The position numbers were made by a program, and so were the translations under genes. From positions 16,246,001-16,310,000 of the forward strand of contig NC_087245.1 in the NCBI RefSeq assembly GCF_037042905.1: a stretch of 64,000 nt of DNA, written 5' to 3'. Within the stretch, counting starts at the first letter, position 1, and each line of letters opens with the position of its first letter. The notes beneath the pieces are model-generated. The model searched no databases and was not told the DNA's origin. It saw only the letters and a list, made by a program, of their open reading frames with translations. The DNA comes from Lytechinus pictus. Its lineage: Eukaryota. This document shows positions 1,825-32,387 of the stretch, one piece after another.

Positions 1825-2109
1825 GTAACCAGCCGCTCTTTGTGAAGACCACAGAGGAAGTATTTGCTGTGAAGGATGGCAAAGCCACCCTCTCCTGCAC
1901 CCTCTCCGGCGAGCCCAAACCCAAGGTAGTCTGGATGAGGGAAGAGGAGATTCTCAAGAACTCGGACAACCTCAAGGTCACGTCCCAACCCAATGGTGTG
2001 TGCTCTCTAGAGATCTCAAAGGTCAGCAGTAATGAGATAGGGGAGTACAGGTGTATAGCTACCAACGAGCATGGAGAGTCAAGCTGTAGGCTCTACTTGG
2101 ATGTGGCAG
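1825..2109 (+). CDS. Exon: I-set Ig domain
   Basis: tttgcag|GT...GCAG|gtgaga; QPLFVKT...ATLSC...GEPKPKVVW...GEYRCIATNEHG; phase 1-1. Confidence 0.93.
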
Positions 2110-8100: not shown

Positions 8101-11100
8101 TCACATCTAGGTGTTTGTCAACACAGGAAGGAGGTGCATGTAAGTGGGAAACATTTTTGGACATATATGTGGAGAGAGAGGGGAATAGAGAGAGAAAGAG
8201 ACCGGAGAGAAATTAAGAGAGAGATATCGGAATGATTTTTCCTGGTATCGCATCACAATTTAAAAAAAAATAAAAACTGCTTCACAAATATTATTTTTTG
8301 TAGCAGATTATTTTCATAGAACGGTACAGAACTTTTATTATTGAGAGTTTTTTCTTGTAAATGATGAAAGGAAGTATTAGGCAAAAAAAAAGAAGATCGG
8401 ATTAAATATTTGCACTCTGTAAAGTTATATTGTGTGTCACACAACAATTACCAGTTAAGACTGACAGACTAATTGATAGATAGATGGACAGAGAGAGAGA
8501 GATAGAAAGGTAGGTAGACCGATAGATAGACATACTTATATACTTATAGAAAGACATACAGAAATACTTGTAGACAGATTAGCATATACCGTGTGAGTAA
8601 AAAAAAAAAACCTGACACCTCACAAATCCTCAACTTAAGAAAAAATATGTCATGAACGCATAATCACTATGGCTGGAAAGAGCATCTTTTCCCAAATAAT
8701 TTGATACCATATTTATATTGTATGTCTTCACGTTTGTTTGGATAATCAATAGGTATTCTTTGCAGTGATGTAAATTTTGATTTGCGCCAAGGTAAGGCAT
8801 GACTGCAATGAATGAACCCCAGATGCAAATTATGTCATAATCCTACATGTGTTAGTAAACATATTTGCAAATCCCTTTTCAATGAAATTAAATTAAGAAC
8901 TAATACTGAAAAGTGATCTGGATTCATTAATTGCAGCCATGCCTTACTTTGGCGCAAATCAAAATTTACATCACTGCAAAGAATACCACATACCACATTA
9001 ATCTGGTATCAAATTATTTGGAAGAACATACTCTTTCAGGTCATATACAATAGTTCTGTGTTCATGACATATTTTATCCTTAAATTGGGGATTTGTGAGG
9101 TGTCAATTTTTTTTTTAGTCACACAGTAGTAAGACAGATCAACAGATAAAAAAAACCCTGACAGCCATATCGATAGATGCATGGACAGACAAACAGACAT
9201 ACAAATGAATGAAGAGTAGAGTACAAAGGAACAGGCAAACAGAGAAAAAAAGCGGTAGGCAGAGATGGAAAAGTAGATCACAAAAGTGGAAGACCCAACA
9301 AAAAGGGGGAAGGATTATTCGTCTGTGATTATACTACTTAGCATGCATGAAAAGATATCACTGGATTTTAAGTAGCTTTGTGCAAAGTTTGTGATACCAC
9401 ATTACTCTCTTTGCTCTTGTGAGAGTGTTTGCTACTTAACAATTAGAACATTTGAGTGTGATACGCAATAGAAGCGAAACCTGAATAGGTAAATTTGCTA
9501 CTGATGACATGAGTGTGTGTTTTGTATTGGATCGGGTAGAAGATGAGTCTGTGCTTGATTCTCATTGCTGTTGGAATTACAACTATGTCAGGTTAGTTAC
9601 TAATATATGATATACATTTATCTTTTAATTAACAGATAAAATATTTTTTTTTTCATTGGGTATTATACATGTAACAATAATTACATTATTTGTTTTATAT
9701 ACAGATTCACTTACCCATGTCCCCACCCCATGTGGAGTATTCCAATGTTACTTATTTACTTTGGATTGCCACATAGTTTCAAAATTATATATTTCAATAC
9801 TAATATCACTATTGATATTTTCATTCACCCTTTTGAGATTTTGAGGGGGGGGGGGATGGGCAACATCATGAATTTGTGACAAATTTATAACAGTGTTGTA
9901 CTCTTTATGCTATTTGAAAACCTAGTGATATTTTGTGTGTTCACCTGACTGAATGGAGACATAAATCACTCATTTTAATTATTTTGTTAACTGAACACTG
10001 CAAAGTAAATTGAATATCTCAAACCTCGCTTAACAAAAGAGGAAATATTTCATTCTAATCAGAGTAAATACACATACTGACCTTCCGTTCACAACTTGTT
10101 TATATTTCTATTGTCTATTATCTCTTTAAAGCTAACCTTCCCTTGTGTTCCTGTATGTACCAACTTCTGTTTGGTAGTTACAATCTTAATCTGTTTTTAT
10201 ATGGTGATAATTATGGTATTATCTAAAAGCATTCAGTCCCATGTAACCTTATTTTTCAGTTTTGTATTTTTTGGTCGGTGCAAAATATAATTTGATAAAG
10301 CTTTTGACATATGAACGAATCAACCAACATTTTGATGAATGACTGACCACCTGACTGAATGCACTATGGATGCATAGATAAATGCTTAGGTGAATGACAG
10401 AATGAACCAATGAGCAAACAAATGAATGAATGAATGAATGGATGAATGGATGGATGGATGAATGAATGAATGAATGAATGAATGAATGAATGAATGAGTG
10501 AGTGAGTGAGTGAGTGAGTGAGTGAGTGAGTGAGTGAGTGAGTGAGTGAGTGAGTGAGTGAGTGAGTGAGTGAGTGAGTGAGTGAGTGAGTGAGTGAGTG
10601 AGTGAGTGAGTGAGTGAGTGAGTGAGTGAATGAATGAATGAATGAATGAATGAATGAATGAATGAATGAATGAATGAATGAATGAATGAATGAATGAATG
10701 AATGAATGAATGAATGAATGAATGAATGGATGGATGGATAGATGGATGGATGGATAAGTGAATGATTGAATGAAAGTATGATAAATAAGATAATTGATTG
10801 ATTGATTAATTGATTATCAAATAAGCCAGCAACATTAAATGAATATCTGAGTGAATGATAAATGATAATTCCCTATGCTATGTATAAAGTAAGCAAATGA
10901 ACGAATATACAAACCTAATTGCTATGAATATGCTTAAATAAAAAGCCAACCAGTAGCTGGAAAGATTGTACTAATCACTGGTGAATACCTCAATCTTCAT
11001 GAAATTTGTAGACTGAACTGAAAACCAATGTTTGATCTCAAAGTGAGTGATATGCCTATCAAATGGCCTTGTTAAACAAATGTTATCTGCTGTAGGTCAC

Positions 11101-14100
11101 AGCAACCAGGCTGTAATTGAGCAACCTAGATTATTTAAACTAAGTCAATCATTAATACAACCATTACTGGCTCCATTTCAGGAGGAAGTATAGGAACGTG
11201 GCATTCATGGTAAGTGGAGGAAATAATATGATTTTGATTCTATTTTATTTATTGATAAATTGTGAAATAATGTGTACAGCTATTTGTATTCTTTATCTGT
11301 AGGCCATATCTCTGCTGTTAAGTGTTTGCTTGGATTATGATTTTATTTACTGATGTATGTATGATCAAATATTGTGTATATTCTAGATGAGTGGATTTGA
11401 TGTTTAGAGGTGCATTGAACTGTTTTATGCAGGATATATATGTGAATATCAGTCAAGTGGATTATTGTTATGCTGTTTGGTAGTATACCCACTTACTACT
11501 TCCTCACTTTTATTCTGACAATCATTATTAGTGTCTCCTCCCAAAGTTCCTTGCACTCATGCTATGTTTCTTATTATATTAAAAAATACATGTACATTTA
11601 CTCCCATTCTCTTCTCTTTCTCTCTCCCTGTCCCTACATCTAGTTCTACCCCCCCCCCTCGTGCACTTATAATGTATCTGTTTGTGTTTTACTCTTTCCC
11701 TTTGTAAGTTGCTTTTTTGTAATCTCCCTCTCTTTCTCTCTTGCTTGCTGGCTTGTTGCTCTCTCCTCTCTCTCTCTCTCTCGCTTATTTCATCCCAGTC
11801 TTCTTTTTCTGCCTCCCCCTTTTTTATTCTCTCTGTCTGTCTCCCCCTCTTTCATTTGTTCACCTTCTACATAATTGTAATATATGTTTATGAATTTGTA
11901 TCAGTTTCTCTTTCTACCCATGTTTACACAGCTATTTTCACAGTGTACTATTTCCAAGGTAAATTTTCCTTGACCAAATCAGTTGATAAATCTATAGTCT
12001 GGTACTTCTGGGGCTGTTTATATCAAAACCAAAATTATTTTGTTTTTGCATACACACATCTCCTGTATTACTTTCCAAGCCGAATCCAATCAGTATATCA
12101 TTCAATATATCAACCACGGCACATTACATGTCAGATGTTTGTGCCATCAATTAAATCTTTCTTTGTTTTAGTACTCCAGCCGGTTTTCCTGTTGTTGTTT
12201 TAACACTCCACTTCTCGCATGACACCAACCTTTGGTTTTATGACAAATGATGCATAGGTAATGAGATACCTATTCATGAGTGGATGTACTGTAAGTGCAA
12301 TTCATTTACAGTAGGTGTGGACCTTTGCATTGGTTTACATGGTACTGAGGCTAACATTTCTATCACATCAATTGTAGGAGGTTTTGTCAAAGGAGTTTTA
12401 CAGTCATTGGATATATCTCTATAAGGTTTGTCCATGATTCCATTTTATCATTAATGCTAATTTATCATGGGCATTTCAAAAACAAATACTGGGTATACAT
12501 TGAATAATCATTCGTTTTTGTTTTGAAAGCAGATCGCTTATGCAATGTGTAGTACCAAACTGGCATTGGAATTGGCAAATCAAGATCCTGCTTTGAGTTA
12601 TTATTAACAGATAAAAATTCAACCATCCATGTTGTTAACACTTGAGCAAAGGTCATCCACATGTATGGTAATAATAAGTTCATAGATCAATACATAAAGA
12701 TATATGCTTTTCCAGATTCATAGTTCCTACAGTTTTAAAAGCTGACTGTTTTCTCACTTGGATTAATATTGACCATATTTCTTAACAGCCTGTGTGCTGA
12801 ATCAGTATTGTTGCTGCTTGTTCTTTTCATAGTTTCTGGACTCCTACTTTTTCTTACCGCACCAATAATTATCAATTATAATTGTTCATCTTAGCAAAGA
12901 ACTACAGCTAATTATTAATATCTCTGGTTTAGGATTGAATGAGGAATATATTCATTGCAATTGTTGATTTTAATCATGCAAACATGCATTTTTTATAGTC
13001 TTTGTTTATGCTTTATTTTTTCTAAATGTCAATATAACCTGATATGGGAGTAAAGTACATGTATTGAAAAAAAACTTATCATGGTTAAATTTTGTAACTA
13101 TAAGTTGCATTGTATAAAACTACGTTATTACAATGTTCTCATATCCTAGGAATTAAACTTTTATGCCTTTTCATGTAAAGACATTGCTATGGCACTTTCA
13201 TCCCTCCATAAATTGAAACAGGCATAGTGCAAATGATGCACAGGACAAAAAAAAATTATATACTGTAGAACTATTATTTTAGGAATGTTGATATGCAAAA
13301 ATACTTCCCCCCCGTCATGTTTGCTTACTCACCTTTAATGAATATTTGAAAGTTTGGATGCAGAAAGGCAGTATAACTTCCAAGTCTTAAAATAACTTCC
13401 TCGTTCTACTAACAGTTAAGGGGAACAGGAAACCTGTAGGTAGGAAGTTATTTGGTCTATGTGAGGAAACTCATTTTTAGTTCTGTTTCTGTTTGTTTCT
13501 GTTTGTGGTAACTCCCGTAGGAACTCGGCAGGACAGCATTTTTTGCTGGTGAACGCCAAGCTGGTATATAACCAATTACTTTGGAAACATTTTACGTCTA
13601 GGTTAATCAGTCATAGTGGCTGACGTAATAGACGACAGATATCACTCTTGGGCCTTTTTATCAAAGTGGAGACAATGGCAGAGTTGGGATTCGAACTCAC
13701 AACCTTGCGATTATGAGTCCAATGCTCTAACCACTGGACCACACGACCCGTATCAGTTCCTGATAACTATTCTAGAAAATCATCCCAGGGAGAGCTTTCT
13801 AATTCTACAAGACAAAAGTTCTGTCATGCCCTTTACTACAATTATTTTAACCCATTAAAAAAATTTTTTTTTGATCTCTAATATCTTCTTTATGTTTTGT
13901 AAACACTTTGAGAGCAGAATGATTTTTTCTATATTGTAAAGCACTTAGGGCATGTTCGTATGGAAAAGTGCTGTATGAATGCTAAAATGTATATATGTAA
14001 TGTAAGTAGCAAATTGATATGTTCAATCTCTTTGATCGAATTTCCTGCAGGTATCACACAATAGTCTGTAACTGTTGGATTGTAATCAACAATTATACAC

Positions 14101-17100
14101 CTTATATATTTTCAGTATTATTTTCTTTCCTTTCCATAGTGTGGTCAATAGTACCAGTTTTTTAATCCATTGTTTGTGTAATGGTAAAAGCTCTTTCTAA
14201 TCACAATTTATAATCTTTTGTGAAAGTTTTTTTGTTCATACAAAATCTATTTCTTTGAATCATTTGAATGTCCATGTTACTTAAATTTGGAATGTTAGAT
14301 ACACCTGTCTTTAATTAATGCAAGTGTGTTCTTTCCAGCAATAAAGTAAGGATTATAAAAATCATCTCTTGGATTTCATATTCCTTGACGTTTTACTAAC
14401 GTTTAGAGTAACAGGAGGAGAGTTGTTTGAACGTATCGTCCAGAGGGATTCCTTTTCGGAGAGTGAAGCTGTAGGTTTCCTGAAGCAGCTTATAGATGGC
14501 CTCATCTACATGCACGATAGGAATATCGTCCATTTAGATCTTAAAGTAAGTCAGAATTTCAAATTTTACATGGGGGGGGGGTGTTTTGTCACGTTTTTTG
14601 GTCTCAATTGGTTCTGCTTGGGCAATTCCATAAAATTTGTACGTCCGACCCCCTATATGAGGGACCTTCATGATTTTTTTTCTCTGATTTCTTGTTCGTT
14701 TGACCGTCTGTAATGTTCTCTAATTGACCATGACTTGGTCAGTTTACAAAGTGAAGTATGGCTTGAAAAAAATGGGGGTCAGATGTACAAAAAGGTTGAT
14801 CATTTTATGGTATTGCCCGTTTATAATCATAAAAATTTGACTTTTTTGGTACAAAAGGGGAATGATGTTTTTTATATATATATACATAACTCTTAAAAGC
14901 TGGTATGGGAATAAACATAAAGCCTCTATTAAGCACATCTATGTATTAGGAGCTCTTGTAGCACAGTAGTTTTAATGGTATGGGTTAATATATCCCACTT
15001 CTGCCACATGTACATGTAATATGCAGTAGGTTGTTTCACTTATCAACATAATGATGGAGTGGACACATGACTTTGTAAAGTGGTGATGTATTTCAGAGTT
15101 CATTTTGGAACATTAGACAAACCATTGTGGCATGCGCACAAGCATGTGTTAATTTTAATACGATGACCAGTGGAATGTACTTATTGGAGAGTTTCTGGAT
15201 TTTATGTAATATTTTTATGGCTTGTATGTTCTTTTTTCAATGTGGAATAGGGTTAGCTTTAATCAAATCTATTCAAATACCACCCAATGCCTTTATATTT
15301 TGTTTCCCCTCTCACCAGCCCGAGAACATTCTCCTAGTGGCACCAGACTCTGATGACATCAAACTAATTGATTTTGGTTTAGCAGCTGTGTTGAAGGAAG
15401 GGGAAGAGGTTAGATGCAAGTTCGGTACCCCAGAGTTTGTGGCTCCAGAAGTTGTCAATAAGAATCCGGTATCCACAGCAGCAGATGTTTGGGGTGTAGG
15501 TGTCATTGCATATATTCTGTAAGTATTCAAGCGAAGTTTGATTAGTGTTAATGCATTTGCTCTTTGTTTCTTGTATTTAACTGTTCTTGTAATTTCTCTT
15601 GCTTTTCCATTTTCCCTATCTTTAGAAAAACACATATATCCTTGTCTTACCTCTTCCTTTAAATCAGCTGTATGCTGTTTGCTCCTCAAGCTCTTTTTTT
15701 TAATTACCACTCTATAGTGACCCCCCCCCCCCCATGACACACATAGCCTAACTTACTTTTCTCTACACTTTTGTGTTCATGAATCTTTATCATCAGGCTA
15801 TTTTTTGTTTAACCACACTCATGCAAATGGGATAAACTAGCCTTTTTTTTTCATTAATATTGGCCCTGACTCTCTTTCTTTTAAACATTTGCATCAATAA
15901 AATCAATGTCGAGTAAAACATACACAATGGCTACAAATTGTGACCAATCTCAATTAAGTTGAGATGGATCTGAATTTTTAATCAATTGCAACATTTCATT
16001 GGTTATGACCCAGGTAGAAACCCAGAAAAATTCAAGTTCAGTATCACAAAGATTGAACAATTTAATGTCTATTTTCTATTCCAAATACAATCAAGGAATT
16101 GCAAAACAAAATCAGATTTTTCTTCCTATACTTTCTGAGTCATGGGAGCTGTTTCATAAATTGAGAACATCTTTAAAAACAACTGAAATCTGAAAAAACA
16201 TGATAATTTTTGGCACATTAGCTAATGTTGCATTGTGCAAATGCTGATTAAAGTACATTGTATAAACTCTAAACAGACTTTTTATTGCAAACCCCTAGAG
16301 ATATTTAAGCTTGCTGCATGCTATTTACTACATGTAGCTAGCGACTAGTGGGTCGATCGCGTAATAAGCAATTGCAAGCTAGTGAACAGTACGTGCTTGC
16401 TAAAAGATAGCTTAATTGTTTCTCGGCATGCCTATTACAATCTTACTAAAGCTATTCGCTTGCTAGTCACTAGCTAGCTGCTAGCTAGTTGTAGCTTGAC
16501 ATTTTGTGAGGTAAGTAATTAATGATCCATATTTTAGATAAAATAACTTGAAATAATACTTCAGTTAACATTTGGATACCTCATAGTTTAATCATTTGTA
16601 AGTTGTTAGTATCTCAGGCAAAGAGAGGGTTGGATGCAGTTGCGAAAATAGAATTAATTGTTCCAAGTATATTTGATTTCCCAGGCTCAAACTGATTTAT
16701 TGTTGTTCAAGTTGTTGTAAATGTCATTGTTTTCACCCATTTTCTCCCAGATGTTTTTGACGCCCCCATATAAATCCATATTTATGTACAAATTTGTTAT
16801 TCATTGATGAAAAAATATTACTTTTTTTCTATTTTTTTTAAAGTTCTACCAGTATATATTGTGAGTACTCCTAAACATAGAAATACTTGTCATATATTTT
16901 TGTATAGTGTTGCTCTTGAAATCTGAAGTACGAGATGACTCAATTCAAGGCGATCAAAAATAATTTCTACTGATACACATGAACTCTGCATATTTTTATA
17001 TATATTCTTTGAAAAGATTAAACTAGGCAAATTCAATTAATCACAATGAGCAGTGATGCCCATGGAAGGTCCGGTAAAATCTAGGTGAATTATTATCTTA

Positions 17101-20100
17101 ATAAATTGTGACAAAGTATTAAACCAGCTATAAAGGGTCACTAAGCAATAATTATGAACTAAAAATAAAATCACAATGATAAATTGGCAGAAATGGCTGT
17201 ATTATAGCTGAAAAACTACATTTCTACCACAGGGACTTGACAGTAAATGTAAGTATCTTCATGTATTTATAAAAAATACTTTGTTATATTTTGTTTACAA
17301 GTGATAACTACCACAACTGGGTTTTACATGTATGTTTAATTGATTGCAGATTGGGTAAACATTTTTCTTTACATTTATTTATTTCAGTCTGAGTGGTATA
17401 TCTCCGTTTGCTGGTGAAGATGATCGTCAGACCCTTCTGAATGTCCGAGGTGGTCAGTGGGACTTTGATGATGAGGTCTGGGATGACATCTCAGATGAAG
17501 CTCAGGATTTCATATGGCTCTTGTTTGAAATGAATGCAGAGTGAGTACAGTGTGTTTTCATTTAAACGACTATTGTATATCATGGAACAAAATCCTGCTC
17601 ATGTCGCTTCTCCCATTTTCTTGATTGTTTCAAATTTTCCCAGAAGTTTTCCTCTTGTTTTAAAACATGCAGTCCATGTTATTTTGTTCCTCCATTGTTT
17701 TATTTTTGTAGTTACACCAGATAGATGGTGAAATATAAATGTATTATATTTTTGCTGTTACTATCATCATGATTTTTGTACCAGTTGGGGTTTGCAAAAA
17801 AAATATATATCTTAAAATGTCTTTGATACTGTATATACAGTAATGAACTGTATGATAGAAATGCTATTAAAGTATGATTATGATACCAAAAGAAAGATTA
17901 TTTGATATCATTTGACTTATAATGAAGTGTATTTCTTTTGAAGGGGGGCCAAGATTTCAAGTGAAAAGATGTAAATGATGGAAGATTGATAGGTAACTAA
18001 CTGGCTGACCAGTTGAGAATAAAAGACTTTACTCAATTTATTGTTTTTCATCATAACTCTTGTAACTTTTTGATTAATACATTATTTTGTTCTTTAATTT
18101 TATCTATTCAAGAAGTCAAACACTCTTTCTTCTCAGTTTGTTTTCAGTGTGAATAGGTATTGGGGAAATCAACTTTGCATGTGTATTAAGGTTGAGGCAT
18201 ATGGAAATAAGTTTGTTGCTTGTACATATCCACTTCATTTGAATTCAAATTTTGCAATACATAAAATCATGTCATCACTCTGCTTTTGGATGTTGAAAAT
18301 TTATTATAAATACTAAGAATTTGCCTTGCATTCTGGAACATGATTTGATGAAGGTTAATTTGACAACAGCCATTATTTGTTTTTATAATTATAATTTTTC
18401 TAGGAAGAGGCCTGGACTAAAAGAAGTATCAGAGCATCCATGGTTGAAGGTATGAAAATGAAAAAATAAAAGGAATTACAAATTATATTTTATATCATGG
18501 GAAAGTGAAATGGGATCATAACTTTCAAATTATGCATATATATCAACCAAATTATAAATGTTTGTTTTGCTGATTAGTATTGTTGTATTATTATTATGCT
18601 TGTTTGATTTGATTATGAGATCATCTTAGACACCTAAATAGGAGTCTCTGCTGTGTTTAGTAGGTATTCCACTATAAAGATGCTAGGCATCTTCACGTCA
18701 TCTTTTCTATCCCCACTGTTTTGTCTATGCTGAAACATGAAGATAAGAGATGAAAACATGCTTGCAGGACTCCTGCAAGAATTGAAGATGCTGCTTTTAC
18801 CAGTGGCAAGGTGCTTAACCTAATTCCCCTACTACATTTGCAGTGACTGTTTGATAAAGGAAATTGATTATTAAGTAACATCTAGTGAAGCACTTCTGTT
18901 GGTGTAGTGCAGGGGATGGGGGTATAATATGATAGCTCAAGTGTTCTTAGAGTGAAAATCTATCAGTATATTACATATTATGAATCATAGAATTTATTTT
19001 TTTTGGTCAACTTTGATAAAATTTCAGATCTTGTAAATGGTCCCATGTGATTTTTTTTCTAGTGTCCACTTGATAATAATGTTCCATGTAAAACATTCCT
19101 TATTTATGAGGACATCATATCTTGAATCGGAAATTATGTATGTGTATATACCTGTACTCTTAGACAATTCAAGTTAAAAAGATTTGCTGGTACCACTAAA
19201 TTATTGTCAACATGCATTATATAATATCTACAAGACTCTCATGAAAAAACATTGTTATTTTTAACCTTACTATTTTGGCTACAATAGGAGGCTACAGAAA
19301 TTTGTTTAAAGCTGTGTCTACAGGTTTTCATAAAAAAGAGGCTCATAAAACAAAAAAAGTACAGAATTTTGTGATAAGAAAAGGGGGTGGAGTTATCACA
19401 TAAAAAGGGGCAGGCACAAGATCAAGTTTGGACGGGGAAGCTTGTGCATCCTGTACGTGCTCTCTCCTGCTTCTATCTGCCAAAGTAAGGGTTAAAAAAA
19501 AGTATAGCATTACCGTTTAGTAGAAATTTTCTGTGAATTGCGCAGACTATGAGTGAACCTACAAAATCTTCAAATCTAACTTTCTGCCTGTTTGTCTAGC
19601 TATGTATCTAGTCCAGTTGATGAATTATACATTATCTTTCCATCTCTCCGTCTTTTTGTCTCTTGATCTAATTGATCATTTGCATCTATTCATTTACTGA
19701 TCTATCAGACATTTCTTTGTGAATGTCTGTATTTCTGTATATTTCTACTCTACTTCTTTAAAAGATAACCTATGAACACTGTTCATTGATATTGCTTTGT
19801 TTTATTTTATTTGTTTCATTGTCGCTATTGTAGTTTGATGAGCGTCAGGACCTAGGTGCTAAGATTAGCTTGGACAGATTGAGGACTTTCAATTCCAGGA
19901 GGAAGTGGAGGGTGAGATATTGTTAATAATATTGTTAGATATATACTTTGTTGCCCCCCCCCCCCAACAATAAATTCTTTTTGGGGGGTAAGCTTTGAGA
20001 TGCAATTCTTGACTTCCTCAGACCTACATGTACATGTATTACACAGCTCCAAATTGTTTAATTAGAAGAATCACAAGAGGAACAATAACATTAAATTTCA

Positions 20101-23100
20101 AAATGCTGAACATTCATTTTAGCAGCCACTGAGCAGCACCAGATCGACGTTGCTCTGTCTCTAAAATCATTGAATGCCAAACAGGGTAGCAGCAACTCCC
20201 ATCTTTCAACATCTTTTGGTCTGATGTGGCAAGGGCTTGACGCTCTACCAATTGAGCCAACACACCAGTATATATGTAAAACATATTTAAAACAAAGTAA
20301 ATGTTGCAATGTCATCACTTAGTACATTTATGTGAAATATTAAATGTGTGACATATGAACATCTTTTAATGTTATTAGTTATAAAAAATTTTGCTAAATA
20401 AAAGGATTACTTTTAGTTATCCTCCCATTTTTGTAGGTGAGTACATGCATGATCATTTGTCTTTTTTTTTTCATCACAGAAAGCCTTGACAGCAGTGAAA
20501 TCAGCAATGAGATTGCGTCGCCTTTCAAGTCTCGGTAGTAACCTGAAGAAAGCAGCCATAGAACACACTTCTGGCCAGCAATCATCGACGTCCTCTTCAC
20601 CCGCCACCCCGGATTCCGCATCATCCGCTGGCAGCGACGTCTTCAGTGAGGACAACACTACCAAATACGGCAACCTGTTATCCCCAACGAGCTGCGAGAC
20701 CATCGTGGAGAGCATAAACGAGGAAGGAGCCGTCGGCGGGGAAGGGAGCGAGACAGGTAGACGGCGTGGTGCATGGAACACATACCGACATTAAAAATCA
20801 GAATCGTTTTCATCTGCCATATTTAGCATGACGTACGGAATGTTGCACACACACAGTGACATTATATCTATATCTACCTGTCTATTGTGCCTATAACTTT
20901 TGTGTTTGACTGTTTTCAAAGCTAACACTGCTCAGCGAGAAGAAAAGCATAACAAATGTGTGCATTTAAAGTGTCTTCTGTCAAAGTACATGAAATATTT
21001 CATTATATTTGTCATGTATTTTGATGAATTGTAAACCAACGAAAGCATGAGACTCTAAAGAGAGAGAGAGAGACAACCAAATCACTGCATGTTCTCTGGC
21101 TTCAATACTGTATCAAATTCTTGTGAACAAGAATTTGATATTTCTGTGCATACTAACTTTCAACTGTTGAATTATATTACATTCTCATTCATTGCTGTAA
21201 CGGATTCACATTTTAGTGACATCTTCACAGTCAAATAATCCAAATAATATTGTGCTTTCAAACAATCAGTTTGAGATATCGTTAGAATCTTTGGGAAAAG
21301 TATAGCTTCCGCACCCATTTGAATAATATTTAAAATATTCCAGGTGTATGATTATACTTCTTTTCAGACTTGAATGCCATTCATTTTCTCCATTGTGAAA
21401 TGAGTTTCTTTTCATTCAATTACCAAAGCTAAGTGCCTGAAACTAAATCTGTTTGATCTGCAATAAAAACAGCCTGTGTTTAAGTTCAGGTTCTTGGTGT
21501 ATTTGGGTTTGTTCCCATGAGTGTGCTTGGACCAGCTGTTTGGAGAATTATTATTGCCAGGTCTGCCAGGAGGTTAGCAGAAGGGGAAAGTAGCTCAAAT
21601 TTGTCCACAATTTGATCCCAGGTAGAACTGCCTGGAGATGTATTTCCGATGATTGATGAGTACACAATCCAGAAAAGACATTCTTGGGGAAGTTTTGGGT
21701 ATCAGGTTATCCATTTGTTCACCGTGTGAGCCATTGTGAAGAATATATTTTGTGACTTTGAGAGTGTGTAGTGTTCATATGAAGGATCTTTCATCTTCGC
21801 TGCATTGGTGAAAGTGCCGTTCAAGGAGTGTAATAATTGAAGCAATATTGAAGACACCAATAAGCAGACATCTCTTGGATGCACCAGTGCCTTAATTTTG
21901 TGGAAGTAATGGAATTATGTGGATTTATCCATGATCACGTTTTTTTTTTGTAGATGAGCATATGCACCAACATCATATAAAAAATTGTTCTATGACTCTT
22001 TCTGTGTGCAACCTGCAGAAATGTCATTGATATTGCCTTAAGCAGAGGACTTTGTAAGTGAATTTTGGCAATTTCTATTTGCTGGCCAGGAGGAAATTTA
22101 GAAGTATAATGCCAAAGTGGTAATACATGATTGGTGTCACAATGGAAAGGAAGAAATCAAACAGTGGTGAAAACATGGCAGATTGTTACAAATCATTGCC
22201 TAATAGAGATTTTGAGAATAATAATGGAGGCACATCAGGTCGTCCCTACCCGCTCCTGTCTCGACCATCAAAGCTGAGCTTCGCCACAAATTTGCACAGT
22301 ATTACTGAGTCAGAAGGAAGCAGAAGTGCCGAGCAAGTTAATGATGACTGGGAAATTGAGAAAGATCTGACAGAAGAGGTATTTTCACGATCAGGTAGTG
22401 ATACATCGTCACTTGTATCGACTCCACGTTCACCGTATGGTTTGAGGAACTTCTCTCAGCTCTCCTCTGAGTCAATGGAGGATATGGACATGGGTAGATC
22501 AGAGCCGATGCAACCAATGTCACAGGATCCTGACATCATGGCCGCTAGACGAAGCTCAGTGCGGAACAGACGCTCTGGATTTGCATTCCACTTCGGAGAT
22601 AAAGCGGTTCCTGCAAATGCCTTTGTCAACACTGAAGAAAATTGCCAGGCACCCAAGATGCTTTCTGTCAATGAAATGATGATGAAGATTGGTTCAGGCA
22701 AAAGTCCGAATGAGTCGAGTGCTAGTATGCCGGCAAAAGAGTCTCCACCTGTCAGCTGTGTATCCCCCACTCTAGATCCACAACGAAAGGAGAGCCTTCG
22801 TAAAGCTGGAGCAGGTCCTCAGCGTTTCAGCCTAGTAGGTCTTCGAAAAGTCTCAAGCAGCGAGATAGAAGAAGATTTAAACTTTTTGCACTGCTTAGGA
22901 GATAGTAGACTCCATCTAACTTTGTATGAGCGGATAGCTTTGCTTTGGTTTGATTCTAGAGGGCGTTTTATTGTAGGCCTCCTTGTAGGCATAGCGATTG
23001 CTGTGTTTATAAGGATTTTGCTGGCTATTACAGACTATATCTGTAGTAGATGACAGGCATAGATGAGGCCCAAATACTTGTTTTTGAATGTGTAAGGTGT

Positions 23101-26100
23101 CTGAACTCTTTATAAAGTGCTTGCCAAAGTAGTTGTAAAGCTGAAAAATACAAAATGTACTTCAAATATTTTAGTGTAACTTTCATGAAATTTCGTGAGC
23201 TATCTAATAATATTTCTGTATGCTTGATATTTTTTTAAAACATAAATTTGTTTTTTTCTTTTTATGCCTCCGCTCACTCTAGCTGGTTGCCAGGGTCATA
23301 ATGTTTTATCGGTCATCTGTCGATCTGTCCCGTTATTTTTCTGGTGAAAACTAAAGAACTGTTTGACAGATAAATTTCATTTCTTGGGCCAAGCAAGGAG
23401 GTTACTTTCAACCTGGTCCAATTATGCATGTACAGTGACAATGATATCGTTAACTTTGGGGATCTTGAGGTCAAAAAATAATTAAAGAATAGTTTAAGGG
23501 TTTAACTTCATATTTAGCTGAAGTATGCATATTGGAGGGACAATGATCTGCTTAGATTTAAGGTCACACGGTCAAAAGTCACAAAGGTAATTATTTCACG
23601 ATTATGAATTGTGAAATGTTTATCTGATAGATTTTGCATGTTTTCATGAAAATCTCAGTCTGTTGCCGATTGAAGTAAAAGTATCTGCATTCTTTGTTAT
23701 ATATTTGATATAAATGTAAACCTGAATATGTTGCATTATTTTTGGTAAGGGCAGTCATTCATCTACCAAACATATTTCCCCAAGTAAACCCAAAACAAAA
23801 ATAAACAGACACGTCACTTCTCAGGCATATATTCAGGTCAAAGGAAATGACAATATTGCTCATTCAGGATGATTTGGGGTGTTTTTTGTACGCCCGTCTC
23901 GACGTGACGTATTATGGTATCACGCTCGGTGTCCGTCCGTCTGTCTGTCCGTTAACTTTTCCTTATAAACGCGATAACTTCAGTTTACTTTAGTTTGACT
24001 TAACCTAGGCTCATATAATTTGGTGTGTATGATACTAGCATAGATCCCAGGAAGTCTTTTGATTTTGAGGTCCAAAGGTCAAGGTCACAGTGACATGTTT
24101 TCATCTTACCCTTCTGAAGTCCTTGTAAACGCGATAACTTCAGTTTAACTTAACCTAGGCTCATATAATTTGGTGTGTATGATACCGGCATAGATCCCAG
24201 CACTTGATTTTGAGGTCAGAAGAACAAAGGTGGAGTCGCCACCTTCCACTTTTCTTGCTTGACCAATAACTCCATTTTCCATGTTACAGGCGGGCGTATT
24301 ATGTGCTCACCTTAGCGACACTCTTGTTTACAATTTAAACTCCCTGGAATTACAAAGAAATTACGGAGAATTGCACTTCTGATTATGATCACTATCTATA
24401 AATCAGATGTCATGTAGGTGCTTTAGCAGTGATAAAAGTTGATTATACATGTATCATTATCTTTTTCATCTATGATATCGAGGGGTCATTTCACAAGCAT
24501 TGGCATATGACAAGCCTACTGGTTTTCTCAATCAGTTTTAAGCACATTAGCTCAATATGCTGATAAACACTTCAGATATCAATGTTTATTTTTAGTACGA
24601 AGTTTGTACCCACATTTCAAGAAATTATCAAGCAATATTTCATGGATTATTTGAAAGTGATGTCAGGCGAAATATTACAAAGCACAAACTTATGAATTAT
24701 TTGGGCTTTTTAATGCATGCTTGTTGCAAAAACCCAGAGCAAAAGACAATCTTTTCATCTGCTTGGGTATCCACACATCAGAATTCTGACCTGTTATTTC
24801 ATAATAGACAATTCAGATTACATTAATAGGTTATTATATTTATGTTGAAACAATTCAAAATGTAGTCTCACTTGTTTATTCTTCATAATTTAGTTGTCAA
24901 AGTCATATATCATGTGTATAACTTATAGTTGGGTATATACCCCATACTGTTTAAAAAAAACTATTCATTTTTTGTTTCTTAATGAAGAAATAACCATACT
25001 ATAATTAGCTTATATAACACCTGATATATGCTATCAGGTGCTTTCAAATGTCATACCTGATATTCTACATGGCATCATGATAGATAAGAGGAAATATTTC
25101 CTTTTTCTTGCTTTTAGTCAATTTGAGTAACTGGCAATGATGTTTTATCAACTTCTGTTATCATTGTCCGTGTCATTGTGTCATGGGTTTTTCTCCCTAT
25201 TAGTATTAGTTGAATTTTGTTCATACTCCTTCCTCAATGGAAGTCAAGACAAAAAAGTTTGGATGATATGTACTAATACTTGTAGATGCAACCAATCTTA
25301 TATTGAATATTTTGATATAGGATGCTTCTTACTGACTTTCAAGCTCACTTTTATCACTGTACAGTATAAAATCATTATGATTATTTATTGGAATTCAATA
25401 GAGTTATTATTGAAACAATGTGTCTGTTAAACAATCTGATCTTAACATACCAGATATTATGTTGGTACTCTTTTAAAAGAACATTAACTGTACTGTAGTT
25501 ATCTTTCATATTGTTAAAGCCTACTTATTTGAAATTTTCCTGCATTTATGGCTCTATTAAACATTTTGGTTATTTATAAGATGTGTTTCTATTTTCAGTG
25601 AAAGTGCAATTGGGTTCGTTTTTATGCAGAGTGGACTATCATAGGAAAATTTGGCATATTGTAAATGATATTTAGAAATATATTTATATCAGAAATGAAC
25701 AGTGAAGTGTGATTGACTTTTGAGCTTTAGTGAAAGGTAATAATATGTACAATGACAAGTTTATGATACAACGGTTTATGAGGTGTATCACCATTTTCAA
25801 AGCAAGTGAGAATAGATATTTTGCTATTTCTTGTCATTTTTTATGACACACTGAAATGTACCAGTGAGATATCGAGGACTGAACATGACAGAAAGCCATA
25901 CTTTATCACTCAAGCATGTTTCATTTGGTGTATTTATTTGTGTCAGGCATTGTGATTCCTCCCACACCCCTCTCCCATGTCCTTGGTCGGCACTGACCCA
26001 CTCTTGCCCGCACCCCCCCCCCCCAACCCAATGCCATAACCCCTCCCTGGAAGTCTACTTTCTCGCTGTAGTCATGTTAGTTGTTGTAGTCATTACACCC

Positions 26101-29100
26101 TATTTGAATCATTCAAAGCCATTAAATAGATCCATTTAGATAGATGTACCTCATCATCAAATTGAATGAATTGATGCATGATCATCTATTGTGATTCTGT
26201 AATGCAGTAATTACTGCATTACTTTATGAATGTTTTCATTTTTGTATACATGATCACCAAACTTGAATTATTTCATGATTTTCATTTTCCCTCATTCAAA
26301 TCCAAATCTTGTCAGTTTTGATTTGATAGTCATTTAAAAAAATTATACTTAAGATTACTTTGTAAAAATTGAAGTGCATTCAATCTGATTTCATAACATA
26401 AGGATATTTCGTTGTAGATCCTGTTTTATCTAGAAAAAATGCTAGAATATAGTTCTGTATTTATCTTATTAGCTGTTTGTATCAATTCCTTATCCAAGCC
26501 ATTAATAGACTGATATCTAAAACTGTATAGACATGTGAATTAATCATAAATATCTTATCCTGCAATTAGACAAATTAGTTTAAGACATATTGTTCTAAAG
26601 TTTATCTTTTTTATCTTAAGCTGCAAGGCAACTAAAGCAGCATTCTCAAAACTACAGTAGATTAAAATTGTCATTGGTTTTTATATTCCATCCAGTGCAA
26701 GTTTTCAAATAGTTTGTATCATCTATACCTGTACAGTTTATCCCCACGGGTATACTTCTCCATTATAGAAGTGATAGTCTTTCTCTATCTATTATCATTT
26801 CTGCTGGTTATTTGTCTGTCCCTTTAAAGACTGCTTTGTTTTCAATATGCTTAACCACGCCCCTTTCCCCTTGGCGCCAATCTATGTCCTTCCTTAAACC
26901 TCACCAACCCTCCTATCGCACAACCCTAAACTCGACACCTATCCCATATTCGACACCCATCCCATACTTCAGTTATGGATCAAGCTCCCGTGTTCGAGCT
27001 CGAGTTGAAAGACCAGATCGTCATGGAAATGAGTCAGCTGAAGTTGACGTGTACGGTGAACGCCCATCCCAAACCCACGATGACATGGTATCACGGAGAG
27101 AACAAGCTCACCAAAGCTTCTGGAGGCAGTCGAGGAATCCAGATCGGCATTGAGAAGGGCAAGGCTTATCTCACCATACCGAAGATAGGCAAGATAGATG
27201 CTGGACAGTACAAGTGTGTTGCCACAAACAAAGCAGGAACTGCCGAGTCCGTTGCTAATCTTACAGTGGCTGGTAAGTAACTTACTTTTTTAAGACCCCG
27301 TCAACCTTGCGTGATTGGAAAAATGACATCATACCATCGCCCCACCGGTGCAATACATATGAATCAACACTGTTCCAATACGATTTCGACGCAAAACAAA
27401 CGGACCGAAGACTAACTCAGTTTCCAACACTAGACCGACGCAAGACAGACGCCATACCAACGTCATGCTACGCTGTACCAATACCAGATGGACCAAAGAC
27501 TAACTCTGTTTCCAATATCTGACCGACGCAAAACAGACGCCATACCAACGTCGTACTACGCTGTACCATACCAGATGGACCAAAGACTAACTCTGTTTCC
27601 AACATCAGACCGACGCAAGACAGACGCCATACCAACGTCATGCTACGCTGTACCAGTACCAGATGGACCAAAGACTAACTCTGTTTCCAACATCAGACCG
27701 ATGCAAGACAGACGCCATACCAACGTCATACTACGCTGTACCAATACCAGATGGACCAAAGACTAATTATGTTTCCAATATCAGACCGACGCAAGACAGA
27801 CGCCATACCAACGTCAAACTACGCTGTACCAATACCAGGCGGACCAAAGACTAACTCTGTTTCCAACATCAGACCGACGCAAGACAGACGCCATATTAAC
27901 GTCATACTACGCTGTATATACAATACCAGACGGACCAAAGACTGTTTCCAATACAAGTTCGACGCAAGACAGACGCCATACCAACGTCATACTACGCCGT
28001 ACCAGATGGACGCAAGCCATGACCATTCCAACACTGTTTTAGTACCAGACCGACGTAAGACATCAGGCGCTATACCAACGCCATGCCACATGCTTATTGG
28101 CACAGTGTCAGTATGATGCTTTTACAACAGAGCTTCCTGCCTATTCACACTGTAAAAATAACATATTTTTCTGCCCGTTAAATGACAGTTGTCTTGCTAG
28201 TCACTGGGGTGAAATTTTACCAATATTTTAAAGTTTTTTTTTCATAATTGAACATTTCTTGAAATTTTCAGTAAAATATCAACATTTAACGCACTGCATG
28301 ATACTAATGGTTTTTCTCATTTGAAGAGAGCTGAATTGTATAAAATTTTAATCTAACTAATATCCGTCTCTTTCGTGTTATTTTTCTATGTCTTCCCATA
28401 TGTCTGCGAGTCGGCTCTTGAGCATTTTTGCAGTGTGATGATTTCCACTAAAATTATTGTGCTCTTCGCGATCTGCTTAATGTCACCACTACATGGTAAA
28501 ATTGCCGTTTACTGACTATCCAATCAACAAATTCAACATTCTTACTTTTAATTTTGGATTGTGTTATGTTTAGACTAATAACACAAGAATAGCGAGACTG
28601 CAGCGTTCTCAGTTTGCGATGAATATGAATTCTAAATGATAATAATTATGGGAATTACATTTAGATGTACCATGCAATAATGAGATCAAAACTATTTGGA
28701 TAATTAACTATTTTGGGAAGGTACCTTTCTAAAAGAAAATTTCAACAGTTTCAACACTGAGTCGCTTTCCAACAATTGTGGTCCACTTGAATATTGCCTA
28801 ATGAAGGTACCGTATGTATATTTTTTCCTGGTTACGGTTTTGTTATAAAGGAATCCATCCCACATACAGGAAATGTATCGGGGGGACCGAGACGCATTAT
28901 GTGAAAGTTTGGAGAGAAAAAAATCAGAAGATATTGCAGTTGTGAATTTGTTAATGTTTCATGAATAATTCATCTGATATTTTGTTTTAAAATTGGGTTC
29001 AGATTTCTTTCTACTATCTATGACTAAGTTGCCCACTTCATATCCGTTCAATTGTTGGAACGGTGAATTGATTGATTAAAGATATTTCAACGTCAATATC

Positions 29101-32100
29101 AAGGACTAATACGTTGAAAGACATTGTTAAATAATACACAAAAGTTTGATCAAAAGTGCTTTAAAAACAAGTAGTTAAAACGACTGGGGTAAATTAAAAT
29201 CATAAATACATATAAATGTAATATTCAAGTCAGAAGTTACTGTGATACGGTTTACGACTACACTGATACAGTATCTTTTTTTTTTAATGAGTATAATTCA
29301 CAAAGCTAACCCTTTTATTCATACTTTCTTAGTTGTTTTAAGAGTGATATTTTTAGTACAGAGGGACAGGAGCCACAGAACCCCTCTTTCAAGGACCTAA
29401 CCATAATCAATGCCTATTTTCATAGCTGTGCCTGAGGCTCCATCTCGTCCTAAGATCCCACTGGTGTCGGCCCACGAAGCATTCGTCTCCTGGAAGATGA
29501 ACCACCCCCCTAAGAAGGATGATCTAGAGGGTTATCTACTACAATGTAGAAAAGCAGGTAAGGTTATTAATCTATCACGGGGTGGGTGCCATATTGGGCA
29601 AGGGGTTGACAGCTCCATCCTGTATTTTTGACTAGCGATTAGCCCTGACAAGACGATAGATTTATTGCAAGAGAAGGGCTGGGCAGCCCGGAATTAACCA
29701 GAAAAATACAAGCAGAAATCCTGATTACATTCCTCCACAGCATTTTACAGGATTTTATTTAAGTTTCTTCCTAAAGAGAATTATAACAATGTTAGCAATA
29801 TAGAATACAAAATATGGCATGGATTATATGGATGGTCATACATTTCTAATGCTATTTCTAATACCTCTTGTGCTCTTTTCCTGATGTTTTAATGCTAAAT
29901 GAAAACCATTAAAGTTAACATTTCAACATAATTATTATTATTATTATTTGTTTGGCGTCACATGTGCCTGGGAGGCGAAAAGCGAACTGAATCACTATGA
30001 CCCGCAGGTCTCTCCTGATATAACTGATTGGGGGAGTGCAGGTGGACCACTACACCGGGGTTTCCCCCTACTCTTATACGAATAGTGACTCTTCTCTTCT
30101 CTACACGGGACCTCCATTAACGTCCTATCCGTTAATGGAGTTTATAACGAGTTAACACATTCTCCTCTTTCTCTCTTTTTCAGGTGATAAACAGTGGCTT
30201 GTTGTATCCAATGTAATCAAAGATTGCAACTTTCATGTGAAATCTCTGAGCCCCGAGAATGAGTATCGTTTCCGAGTGGCCTGCGGCACCCCTCATGGAT
30301 GCGGTCCTTTCAGCAAGTCTTCTGTGCAATTTAAAACACTCCCGGAAGGTAATGATAGGAGGAAGAAATTGAATATGAAGATTGTGTCTGGTGATGATGA
30401 TGATGACATTGATGATGATGATGATGTTGATGACGATGACGATGATAATGATGTCGTTGATAATGGTGGTGGTAAAGAGGAGGGGAAGAAAAGTAAGGTG
30501 ATGGTGACGATGATGATTATCATCATGAATAAGGAGAAGAGGAAGAGGAAAAACAAGAACAAGGAGAAGAGCACGAAGAAGAAGGGAGGGGAGGGTGAGG
30601 CGAATAAAAAGAAGAGGAAGTAAATTGAAAGATATACGTATGATTCTACGATAGCACACTTATTAGTAATCGGTATATGTGGCTGACTAGCAACTGTCTG
30701 ATTTTGACGTCAAACATGAATGGGGTAAAGAGACGTAATATTTCGTGAAACAATAGCAAACAAACCAACCCCTTATAAAACATTTACTTTTCATTCACAG
30801 GAGCTGATGCCTTGAACATGGAATCCATCACAAAGTTACAGCACTCGAGAACGAGATCGTTGTCGAGAGAGAGGCATAACTCCCGTGACGAGGTCCTGTC
30901 CGAGCTCATTGATGATGAGGATCTTGGTCCTTTGGACTTGTCTCTCAAATCATCCGTGATGCCTCAGAAGATTTATGAGATGCAGGAGGAAATTGGAAGG
31001 TAATAGCATACCGTTCAACTGCCTTACTGATCAACACGATCCGGGTCGATCAATTTATCTGTTTTCCTGATCTATATACATGTAGCTCAGCAACGTGATA
31101 TGGGTCACTATACCTTGATCCATACCAGTCTGCCTTGATTTGGATTTTCAGCAGTATTTTGGCTATGTTCAAAACGCTCAGAAGCCGAGCAAAGTTGATC
31201 AGTGAAGACCAACCGTCATCAAGGCAGGTTGACCATGTTGACCACGATCATGTTGTGATGCTAAATCATCCAGGCCCGACGTGCATTTGACCTAGGGCTT
31301 GATCGCATTGACAAATAGGCAGTGGACTCATATACATCTTTTTTGTTAAGATTTGTCGTGTAGCAGACCGACAAATTGTGTTACAGCAGAAGTAGGGATA
31401 AAAATGAACAGTATTTAAGTTAGCCTGCAAGCAAATATAATCTGGGATGGGGTATATGCTTAAAAGTTGACAGATCGAAGACAAAATGTAAACTGTATAG
31501 TATTTCGGAAGTGTATGGTCAAAGTTGAATTTTATGAAGAGATATTTGAAAATGGTAATAACGAAAAATGAAAAAAAAAAGTGTATTCGCGCTGAAAGGA
31601 CTGGTCTCATGACATTTCAAATAATTTGCGAATTTCTGATAATTTCTGGGTCAGATCTCTGCCTATCTGTGTAACGTCAGGCTTTATTCCTGGTGGGTGT
31701 TTCATAAAGCTGTTCGTAAGATACAAATGACTTTACGCACGACTGGTGATCCTTTCTTGTGCTTTGTGACATATAGCCCTATGTAATTGATTTTGACCTA
31801 AGAACATGTTCCATTTCCATTTTTTTCTTCATTTTTTCATTAAAGTCGTGCGTAACTTTACGAACAGCTTTTTGAAACACCCACCTGCTCATTTGTAACC
31901 CAGAACAGATTGTGACTTCAACTGACTGATTTCCAGGTCAATCTGACCAGTTTTCTTGGAAAGTGTATGAGAAACACTGAATTATTGTTGATTCATTTCA
32001 GAGGAAGATATTCGGTGGTGATGAGGTGCCGGAAGGTAGCAACCTGCAAGGAATATGCTGTCAAGATCCTAGCACACAACAAAAAGACGCAAGATAAATG

Positions 32101-32387
32101 TCTGGCAGAGTATGAGCTTCTGAGGGAACTATCCCACCCCCACATCCTACAGCTCCGAGAAGCTTTCCTAACGAACAGGCACGTCATGTTGGTCACTGAG
32201 CGCTACTACGGAGGAACAGTGCTGAAGTATCTGACCAAGGAAGATACATACACCGAGTCTACAGTGGTCAGAATAGTTGCCCAGGTGAGCCCCCACCCCC
32301 CTCTTTGATTAAAAAAGGTATGGCGTATAAAATGCTAAGAACCAATCAAAACCCCCCAAACCAAAATGTGCAATATGCCCCCCCCCC

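Follow-up and report, generated by a model that had tools for sequence, protein, structure and literature searches.

Organization of the locus

The subject of this work is an open reading frame (ORF) of 308 codons that lies between two kinase modules of an obscurin/SPEG/UNC-89-like gene of Lytechinus pictus, and that an initial annotation, made from the sequence alone, had singled out as the possible source of a tail-anchored protein. The window, that is, the whole stretch of DNA analysed, comprises 64,000 nucleotides (nt) of RefSeq assembly GCF_037042905.1 (contig NC_087245.1, positions 16,246,001 to 16,310,000, forward strand), and all coordinates given below are positions within it. Based on Pfam searches of 121 plus-strand frames of at least 58 amino acids (aa), two MLCK-family kinase domains were located on one strand, each after immunoglobulin (Ig) domains, an order like that of obscurin, SPEG and UNC-89, with the ORF between the kinases. 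The elements of this host gene were the following:

1743-2159, plus strand: I-set domain (Pfam)
2861-3250, plus strand: I-set domain (Pfam)
4024-4389, 14345-14710 and 15079-15519, plus strand: Pkinase pieces of kinase 1 (Pfam)
14405-14545, 15319-15518, 17388-17540, 18404-18447 and 19832-19910, plus strand: later kinase-1 exons, from spliced RNA-derived contigs (X15 record 7, X1 record 1) with GT..AG joints
20479..20756, plus strand: post-kinase exon (KALTAVKSAMRLRRLSS..., Ser-rich linker, ...EGSET), joined from 19910 to 20479, with a candidate donor GT at 20757
26930-27277, plus strand: I-set domain (Pfam)
31916-32305 and 32485-32697, plus strand: Pkinase pieces of kinase 2 (Pfam)

The exons of kinase 1 span 4024-20756, ahead of the ORF, and the DFG and APE motifs of this kinase are both present in exon 15319-15518. 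By tblastn, the kinase-1 exons of the window were 59-74% identical to the kinase of the sea star Patiria miniata and the post-kinase exon was 86% identical, and kinase 1 was therefore regarded as the orthologue of the kinase carried by the relatives described below. A joint from 20756 to 26973, by which kinase 1 would be connected with the Ig exon that precedes kinase 2, would fit in phase; it was not seen in any of the four sequencing runs analysed, an absence of little weight at the depth of these runs.

The ORF and its predicted product

The ORF runs from ATG 22127 to the stop TGA (23051-23053) and, as the initial annotation had stated, a TAA at 22121-22123 stands in frame directly upstream of its start. 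Counted from stop to stop, its 309 codons make it the longest of the 55 frames of at least 90 aa found in all six frames of the whole window, the second longest being a 271-aa reverse-transcriptase fragment. The longest frame in 100 mononucleotide shuffles of the window had a mean of 131 codons and a maximum of 222.

22127..23053, plus strand: 308-aa ORF (product P0001), stop included, with homologs at E-values from 1e-144 to 1e-17
22967..23029, plus strand: predicted C-terminal membrane helix (residues 281-301), with invariant G284xxxG288 flanked by conserved R280 and R296, and with TDYICSR after it as the 7-residue tail

The product had been described as Ser/Glu/Pro-rich and disordered, with several basophilic motifs, and this was borne out by its composition (S 14.3%, E 7.5%, P 5.8%), by the sites RRSS (141), RRS-G (148), RKES (220) and RKVS (240), and by AlphaFold2 (10-row alignment), in which the predicted local distance difference test (pLDDT) averaged 49 and fell below 50 at 206 of the 308 residues. 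The sole confident part of the model was a helix at 277-307 (block pLDDT 85-94), in agreement with the single C-terminal hydrophobic helix and 7-residue tail proposed before. Residues 281-299 (FIVGLLVGIAIAVFIRILL) have a mean Kyte-Doolittle value of 2.85 and leave nine residues on their C-terminal side, while the next-best 19-residue window elsewhere in P0001 scores 0.32 or lower; the protein ends in FIVGLLVGIAIAVFIRILLAI plus seven residues. As is typical of tail-anchored proteins, the single predicted membrane helix lies within about 30-40 residues of the C-terminus, and outside the last 45 residues the best 19-mer reached 0.32-0.64 in five sequences of this kind, according to a hydrophobicity scan made without a dedicated signal-peptide predictor. 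The anchor had been assigned to the endoplasmic or sarcoplasmic reticulum (ER/SR), yet the mitochondrial outer membrane would be just as plausible a target. Two short motifs of P0001, LIR-like (DDWEIE) and FFAT-like (NFLH), were dropped as candidates, not being kept across the alignment.

No family had been recognised for the product, and the database searches led to the same result. Pfam returned no family for P0001 at E <= 10 and nothing on the homologous region of six relatives, the best matches of a profile search against PDB (E 0.024, a serpin, followed by 0.72) were both taken as chance, and the ESM Atlas gave no usable match for full P0001 or for residues 125-308. In the 812-Mb assembly the ORF is present in one copy, the match at its own place.

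A conserved module at the C-terminus of kinase 1 in other species

Word-index searches returned four relatives of stand-alone size, none of them named and none with a Pfam domain:

P0002, 311 aa: 77% identical to P0001
P0003, 319 aa: 41% identical, the alignment spanning 92% of the query and the identities clustering in motif blocks common to all relatives
P0007, 301 aa: 39-42% identical to P0001
P0008, 363 aa: in one 90% cluster with P0013

A five-sequence profile matched seven proteins among 1.84 billion representatives at E <= 0.001 (E-values of the module matches, 2e-149 to 1e-17). In four of these seven the module forms the C-terminal end of a longer protein, namely P0009 (620 aa), P0010 (758 aa), P0011 (1083 aa) and P0012 (1665 aa). 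P0011 (XP_033098287.1, from the feather star Anneissia japonica) is composed of Ig-Ig-Pkinase, a long linker and the module, and P0012 (XP_038047068.1, from Patiria miniata) of five I-set stretches, fn3, Pkinase, linker and module. The isoforms listed for these two RefSeq models (P0014 and P0015) have the same C-terminal tail, so that both listed isoforms of each named relative end at the anchor. The Patiria pair (XP_038047068.1 and XP_038047067.1, named 'myosin light chain kinase, smooth muscle-like') and the Anneissia pair (XP_033098287.1 and XP_033098286.1) are the only named relatives of the module; the names shown in those records refer to the kinase only, and no annotation of the module was noticed there. 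Identity between P0001 and the Patiria and Anneissia modules was only 26-29%.

The link to the kinase was also present in unnamed ORFs. P0009 (starting ...QKALTAVKSAMRLRRLSS) and P0010 (starting MRLRRL) both match window exon 20479, and their frame is open from the post-kinase exon through to the anchor, in P0009 from KALTAVKSAMRLRRLSS on. Over 20-21 residues, exon 20479-20756 was 86-95% identical to P0009, P0012 and P0015. P0008 and P0013 are identical from VNGGSS on and are preceded by MYLFL in one and by ...LDLEAVPPGLAEKELSTM in the other, a divergence that was read as the unspliced and the spliced version of an intron ahead of the anchor exon.

Ten aligned sequences share the blocks RPSKL..NL, SSLVS.P, DPD(I/V)MA, RRSGFAF..GD..P.NAF, PKMLSV.EMMMK and RFSL.G.R...E...L.FL, together with the GxxxG helix. 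All of them are carried by P0001, which was regarded as the orthologue of the module; as in the relatives, it shares the strand of the orthologous kinase 1 and is found 3' of that kinase. Two blocks ahead of the helix stood out:

22532..22687, plus strand: most conserved block of the predicted cytosolic part (residues 136-187), DPDIMAARRSSVRNRRSGFAFHFGDKAVPANAFVNTEE..PKMLSVNEMMMK
22823..22888, plus strand: second conserved block (residues 233-254), RFSLVGLRKVSSSEIEEDLNFL

In the first of these, R148, R149, P176, K177, L179 and M185 are invariant among the ten sequences and G151, F152, F154, G157, D158, P162, N164, A165 and F166 nearly so; in the second, F234, L236, G238, R240, L251, F253 and L254 are invariant or nearly so. 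The best 19-mer (Kyte-Doolittle 2.2-2.85) was located 0-9 residues from the C-terminus in nine of nine homologs. Judged from these comparisons, a kinase-1 C-terminus in frame with the module looks like the ancestral state. A search for longer homologs, confined to 2915-5000 aa, returned none; the fused forms, of 600-1900 aa, fall outside that band. Complex prediction between the kinase domain of P0011 (200-465) and its own module (915-1035) gave a score of 0.00, uninformative either way.

These data also bear on a possible mobile origin of the ORF, by insertion of a transposon or virus into the kinase gene; matches to such elements had been named beforehand as an outcome to look for. Expressed repeats do occur nearby (23834-24727), whereas the ORF and the spacer ahead of it are each single-copy in the 812-Mb assembly, the product has no Pfam match, and the relatives of known context all carry the module behind the orthologous kinase, all of which makes a mobile origin hardly credible.

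Interruption between kinase 1 and the anchor

In the Patiria and Anneissia RefSeq models, as in the window, the C-terminal module lies behind an orthologous Ig-Ig-kinase with a QKALTAVKSA.R..RLSS tail. The module is in frame with the kinase in those models, whereas in the window a stop and a closed spacer of 1.33 kb stand between them, and in-frame continuity with kinase 1, i.e. a fused isoform, was not found in this genome, as judged from the sequence and from four sequencing runs of low depth. The interruption is made up as follows:

20757..20794, plus strand: read-through of the donor, 12 further codons, then TAA 20792-20794, which closes the kinase-1 frame
20795..22126, plus strand: spacer without coding capacity, 1,332 nt (contigs X15 record 7, X1 records 2 and 3)
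21953..22126, plus strand: strong-looking acceptors at 21953, 22018 and 22089 and GTAAGT at 22054, recognised in the sequence

The spacer contains 21, 27 and 25 stops in its three frames, its longest open stretch is 59 codons, and 25 ATGs lie in it ahead of 22127. It is unique in the 812-Mb assembly, where its one match is itself, and a transposon insertion was rejected as the cause of the split on the grounds that the spacer is single-copy. No similarity was detected by tblastn between the linkers of the fused relatives and spacer 20795-22126, a result that lends no support to an origin of the spacer as a decayed linker.

The signals that had been listed around the ORF are present (AG at 21953, 22018 and 22089, AATAAA at 21462, ATTAAA at 25556), and the statement that fusion through the upstream acceptors is blocked was upheld. 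Entry at 21953, 22018 or 22089, or by way of a mini-exon ending at GTAAGT 22054, was rejected as a route of fusion, since all of them meet stops. The stretch from 21953 shares the frame of the ORF and has the phase of donor 20757 but contains three stops (the first directly after DEHMHQHHIKNCSMTLSVCNLQKCH); 21953-22126 is possibly the decayed 5' part of an ancestral anchor exon. Since none of the upstream acceptors avoids a stop, what is left is a separate ORF or entry through a weak acceptor within the ORF. The AG at 22207-22208, a weak one, is alone within the ORF in combining the right phase with any pyrimidines ahead of it.

Transcription of the kinase-1 terminal exon and the ORF

The four runs bear the same species label, with run types on record that are guessed or unknown, and were mapped to 14000-27400; X1 and X15 were judged to be cDNA by their spliced contigs. 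Raw reads represent about 6% of each run, with a depth over the ORF of at most about 3.

The ORF had been placed inside an intron, 20757-26972. That placement was not supported: no read or contig carries the corresponding joint, and the RNA instead presents this stretch as a long terminal exon. Contig record 7 of X15 (2,559 nt) joins 14405-14545, 15319-15518, 17388-17540, 18404-18447, 19832-19910 and 20479-22296, with GT..AG at every joint and no differences over its last 1,818 nt, and it runs unspliced across donor 20757, the kinase stop and AATAAA 21462 into the ORF. The proposed use of AATAAA 21462 as an intronic poly(A) site was not supported either, as contigs continue through it. Transcript coverage, which the initial annotation had left to be checked, was therefore unbroken over 20479-22296, and other contigs (22358-23370, 23446-23699, 24293-25254 and 25310-25841) reach 25841. 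Contigs may chain overlapping transcripts; one continuous molecule is likely, short of proof.

The depth of X1 contigs was 17.6 on the spliced kinase exons, 17.5 over 20687-21073, 20.6 over 21368-22760 and 15.9 over 22763-23173, compared with 0 in true introns such as 15788-17128 and 18470-19363. Given these similar depths across exons and spacer, the unspliced form was taken as the main one in these samples, rather than leftover pre-mRNA. Over 26069-26962 depth was 0 in the runs mapped, and it was 0-1 on the Ig exon. In X20, stranded raw reads covered 21599-22939 at a depth of 1-3; their first mate mapped to the minus strand, as is the case for plus-strand RNA in most stranded libraries.

23054..25841, plus strand: transcribed 3' region after the ORF, with ATTAAA 23481, AATAAA 23800 and ATTAAA 25556

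Expressed dispersed repeats were observed inside this region (23834-24727) as well as at 14447-14893 and 19811-20257, where summed contig depth in the RNA-derived runs was very high (at most 11,719) and loose ends and odd joints were numerous.

The RNA data also allow weighing the reading in which the module continues to serve here as an alternative last coding exon. If donor 20757 (phase 1) were spliced into the ORF at a low level or in certain tissues, with AG 22207-22208 as the best candidate acceptor (entry at about 22209), the product would be ...EGSET-D-FENNNGG..., a tail-anchored kinase-1 isoform like those of the fused relatives, and the unspliced contig would represent another isoform. 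The fused state is found in four of the seven profile matches (P0009-P0012) and in the cluster members P0013, P0014 and P0015, donor 20757 is at the position homologous to the P0013 junction, its phase agrees with that of AG 22207-22208, and tblastn homology to P0003, P0007 and P0010 begins at 22193-22211. None of the four runs contained a joint into the ORF, an absence that is weak at this depth, too low for rare joints; the low depth is therefore a point against a separate protein. On the other hand, the X1 contigs that lie within the would-be intron 20757-22208 (17.5), or mostly there (20.6), match the kinase exons in depth (17.6) and make the unspliced form the major one, the candidate acceptor is preceded by a poor pyrimidine tract and, at a distance of 2 nt, by another AG, and the first 26 residues of the ORF, upstream of that acceptor, are well kept between P0001 and P0002 (see below). 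Such a splice was considered possible though unlikely. Of the original proposal of an alternative last exon anchoring kinase 1 to a membrane, the part that stands is the one for other species, where the module is the in-frame C-terminus; here the frame is blocked.

Probable start codon and signs of selection on the ORF

ATG 22127 has a poor context (taatacATGa), while ATG 22142 (Met6), with A at -3 and G at +4 (gtcacaATGg), is far better placed, and translation of the ORF probably starts there. P0003 likewise begins with MER, which lends weak support to a Met6 start. In X20, five molecules start at 22140 (depth 6), two bases before ATG 22142, a mere hint of a 5' end, or chance. Residues 1-26 are 69% identical between P0001 and P0002 without indels, whereas residues 189-215 or so, the least constrained coding part, show about 50% identity by eye and one indel; coding from the ORF start is favoured by the better preservation of these first 26 residues.

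Among the single-nucleotide polymorphisms (SNPs) listed in the ORF (n = 9, of at least nine), five were synonymous and four nonsynonymous, against an expectation of 22% synonymous (P = 0.03), and the one indel among the listed variants is an in-frame AGA that restores a Lys present in P0002. The listed variants lend weak support to constraint on the ORF within the species.

An alternative in which the ORF is a relic, that is, a former anchor exon severed by mutation and transcribed as 3' untranslated region (UTR) without being translated, would account for its place on the observed transcript, past a stop and 25 ATGs, and for the lack of evidence of its translation. Against it stand the open frame of 309 codons, compared with a shuffle maximum of 222, the identity to P0003 (41%) and P0007 (39-42%) with the same invariant motifs as in the fused forms, the excess of synonymous SNPs and the in-frame indel among the variants listed, and at least four ORFs of stand-alone size in different clusters. 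We regard a relic as improbable.

Proposed fission of kinase and anchor

The reading we favour, at a probability of roughly 0.55, is a lineage-specific fission of kinase and anchor, after which the anchor is made as a separate tail-anchored protein. The ancestral short isoform would have consisted of Ig-Ig-kinase 1, a regulatory tail, a disordered linker, the conserved phospho-motif region and one C-terminal membrane helix. In the lineage of the window this linker would have been broken, such that the kinase-1 frame ends at 20792, an untranslatable spacer of 1.33 kb follows, and the anchor module forms its own ORF, which the plus-strand kinase-1 transcript includes in its long terminal exon (20479 to about 25841). 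The anchor would then be translated separately, giving a disordered protein with a tail anchor and many phospho-sites. The 25 intervening ATGs rule out scanning from the kinase stop; an internal transcription start seems a likelier route than a true second cistron, and internal ribosome entry a less likely one. Insertion of the protein would be post-translational, with the ER/SR or the mitochondrial outer membrane as its target, and would leave the disordered part, rich in basophilic sites, in the cytosol. A short hydrophobic core (15 residues) between conserved Arg residues, here R280 and R296, would suit either membrane. The anchor might still serve kinase 1 as a membrane-bound partner or substrate, in which case a covalent anchor would have turned into a non-covalent one. 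Of the nested separate gene proposed by the initial annotation, the separate ORF was retained for this genome, where the acceptors lead to stops; in ancestry, the module would be a kinase-1 C-terminus instead.

Several points weigh against fission with separate translation. Translation of the ORF on its own is an inference, and on the RNA seen the ORF lies 1.33 kb past the kinase stop and 25 ATGs, beyond ordinary scanning or re-initiation, while a separate transcript start is hinted at only by the five molecules at 22140, from one run. Homology to distant relatives begins at 22193-22253, near the weak AG 22207-22208 that is in the right phase for donor 20757. Moreover, predicted proteins start with Met by construction, and the short N-termini of P0002, P0003 and P0007 are no proof of starts of their own; the SNP evidence comes from the listed SNPs only.

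A broader version of the fission reading is put forward tentatively, with less confidence than the fission itself. According to it, echinoderm kinase 1 would be natively tail-anchored by an undescribed module, fission would have taken place in the terminal exon in one lineage, a 308-codon cistron in the 3' UTR would be translated non-canonically or through a hidden internal promoter, and a covalent tether would have become a two-protein pair of kinase and receptor.

Neighbouring features of the window

A third MLCK-family kinase domain was found on the minus strand at 47639-53814, in seven exon-like pieces with 35-54% identity (38-54% for the five strongest) in tblastn comparisons with sea star and feather star kinases. 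Further 5' on the minus strand lies an fn3-like piece (59693-59980), and the whole looks like a convergent neighbouring kinase gene. Among its exons lies a retroelement fragment, a plus-strand frame of 271 aa (48110-48922) that weakly matches RVT_1 and ALKBH8_N. Just past the Ig exon 26973-27277, a tandem repeat occupies 27402-28004 (88 nt, 6.9 copies, 89% matches); its period is not a multiple of three, and it generates repetitive ORFs at 27277-28113.

Significance and comparison with known systems

The recruitment of obscurin-family kinases to membranes within the cell is a matter of active interest in muscle biology. Vertebrate kinases use partners for this purpose, small ankyrin 1.5 in the case of obscurin and proteins of the junctional complex in that of SPEG. 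If the interpretation is true, a kinase-1 isoform with its own membrane helix would be a direct solution, and the conserved docking or phospho-motif region would deserve attention. The split state would amount to a natural separation of kinase and anchor that bears on the expression of downstream ORFs and on gene fission. In terms of annotation, standard gene models would miss the ORF or label it intronic.

The host gene shares with obscurin, SPEG and UNC-89 the order Ig-Ig-kinase 1 ... Ig-kinase 2 on one strand. Other products of MLCK-family loci, telokin and APEG-1, arise from internal promoters as genes within genes. The inter-kinase linkers of SPEG and obscurin are described as phosphorylated regulatory regions (PMC7957886, excerpt), and vertebrate obscurin as reaching the SR through small ankyrin 1.5 (PMC2172649, excerpt). 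The word 'transmembrane' occurred zero times in two reviews of the obscurin/SPEG family, and the literature retrieved, mostly as listings and abstracts, contained no membrane-spanning form of obscurin, SPEG or UNC-89 and no account of the module. The fused form is already present, unremarked, in two RefSeq models.

Of the systems found, two come nearest in function. In its fused state, the system would be like the tail-anchored isoforms of myotonic dystrophy protein kinase (DMPK A-D), in which alternative C-termini anchor a muscle Ser/Thr kinase to the ER or the mitochondrial outer membrane (PMC2778554, excerpt). DMPK is an AGC kinase, whereas the host in the window is MLCK/obscurin-like, and the anchor of DMPK is always within the kinase chain; the likeness is one of function. 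The split state would, by function, be closer to alphaKAP, in which the anchor is N-terminal. This non-kinase product of the CaMKII-alpha gene is itself membrane-anchored and recruits the kinase to the SR membrane (PMC9913510, excerpt). It binds through the CaMKII association domain, whereas the ORF in the window is without a folded domain and its binding to kinase 1 is presumed only. Within what was tested, none of these systems is related to the module in sequence. Membrane anchoring of a muscle kinase is a known principle; what is unusual here is the fission, together with a long conserved ORF behind the stop of another protein on the same transcript.

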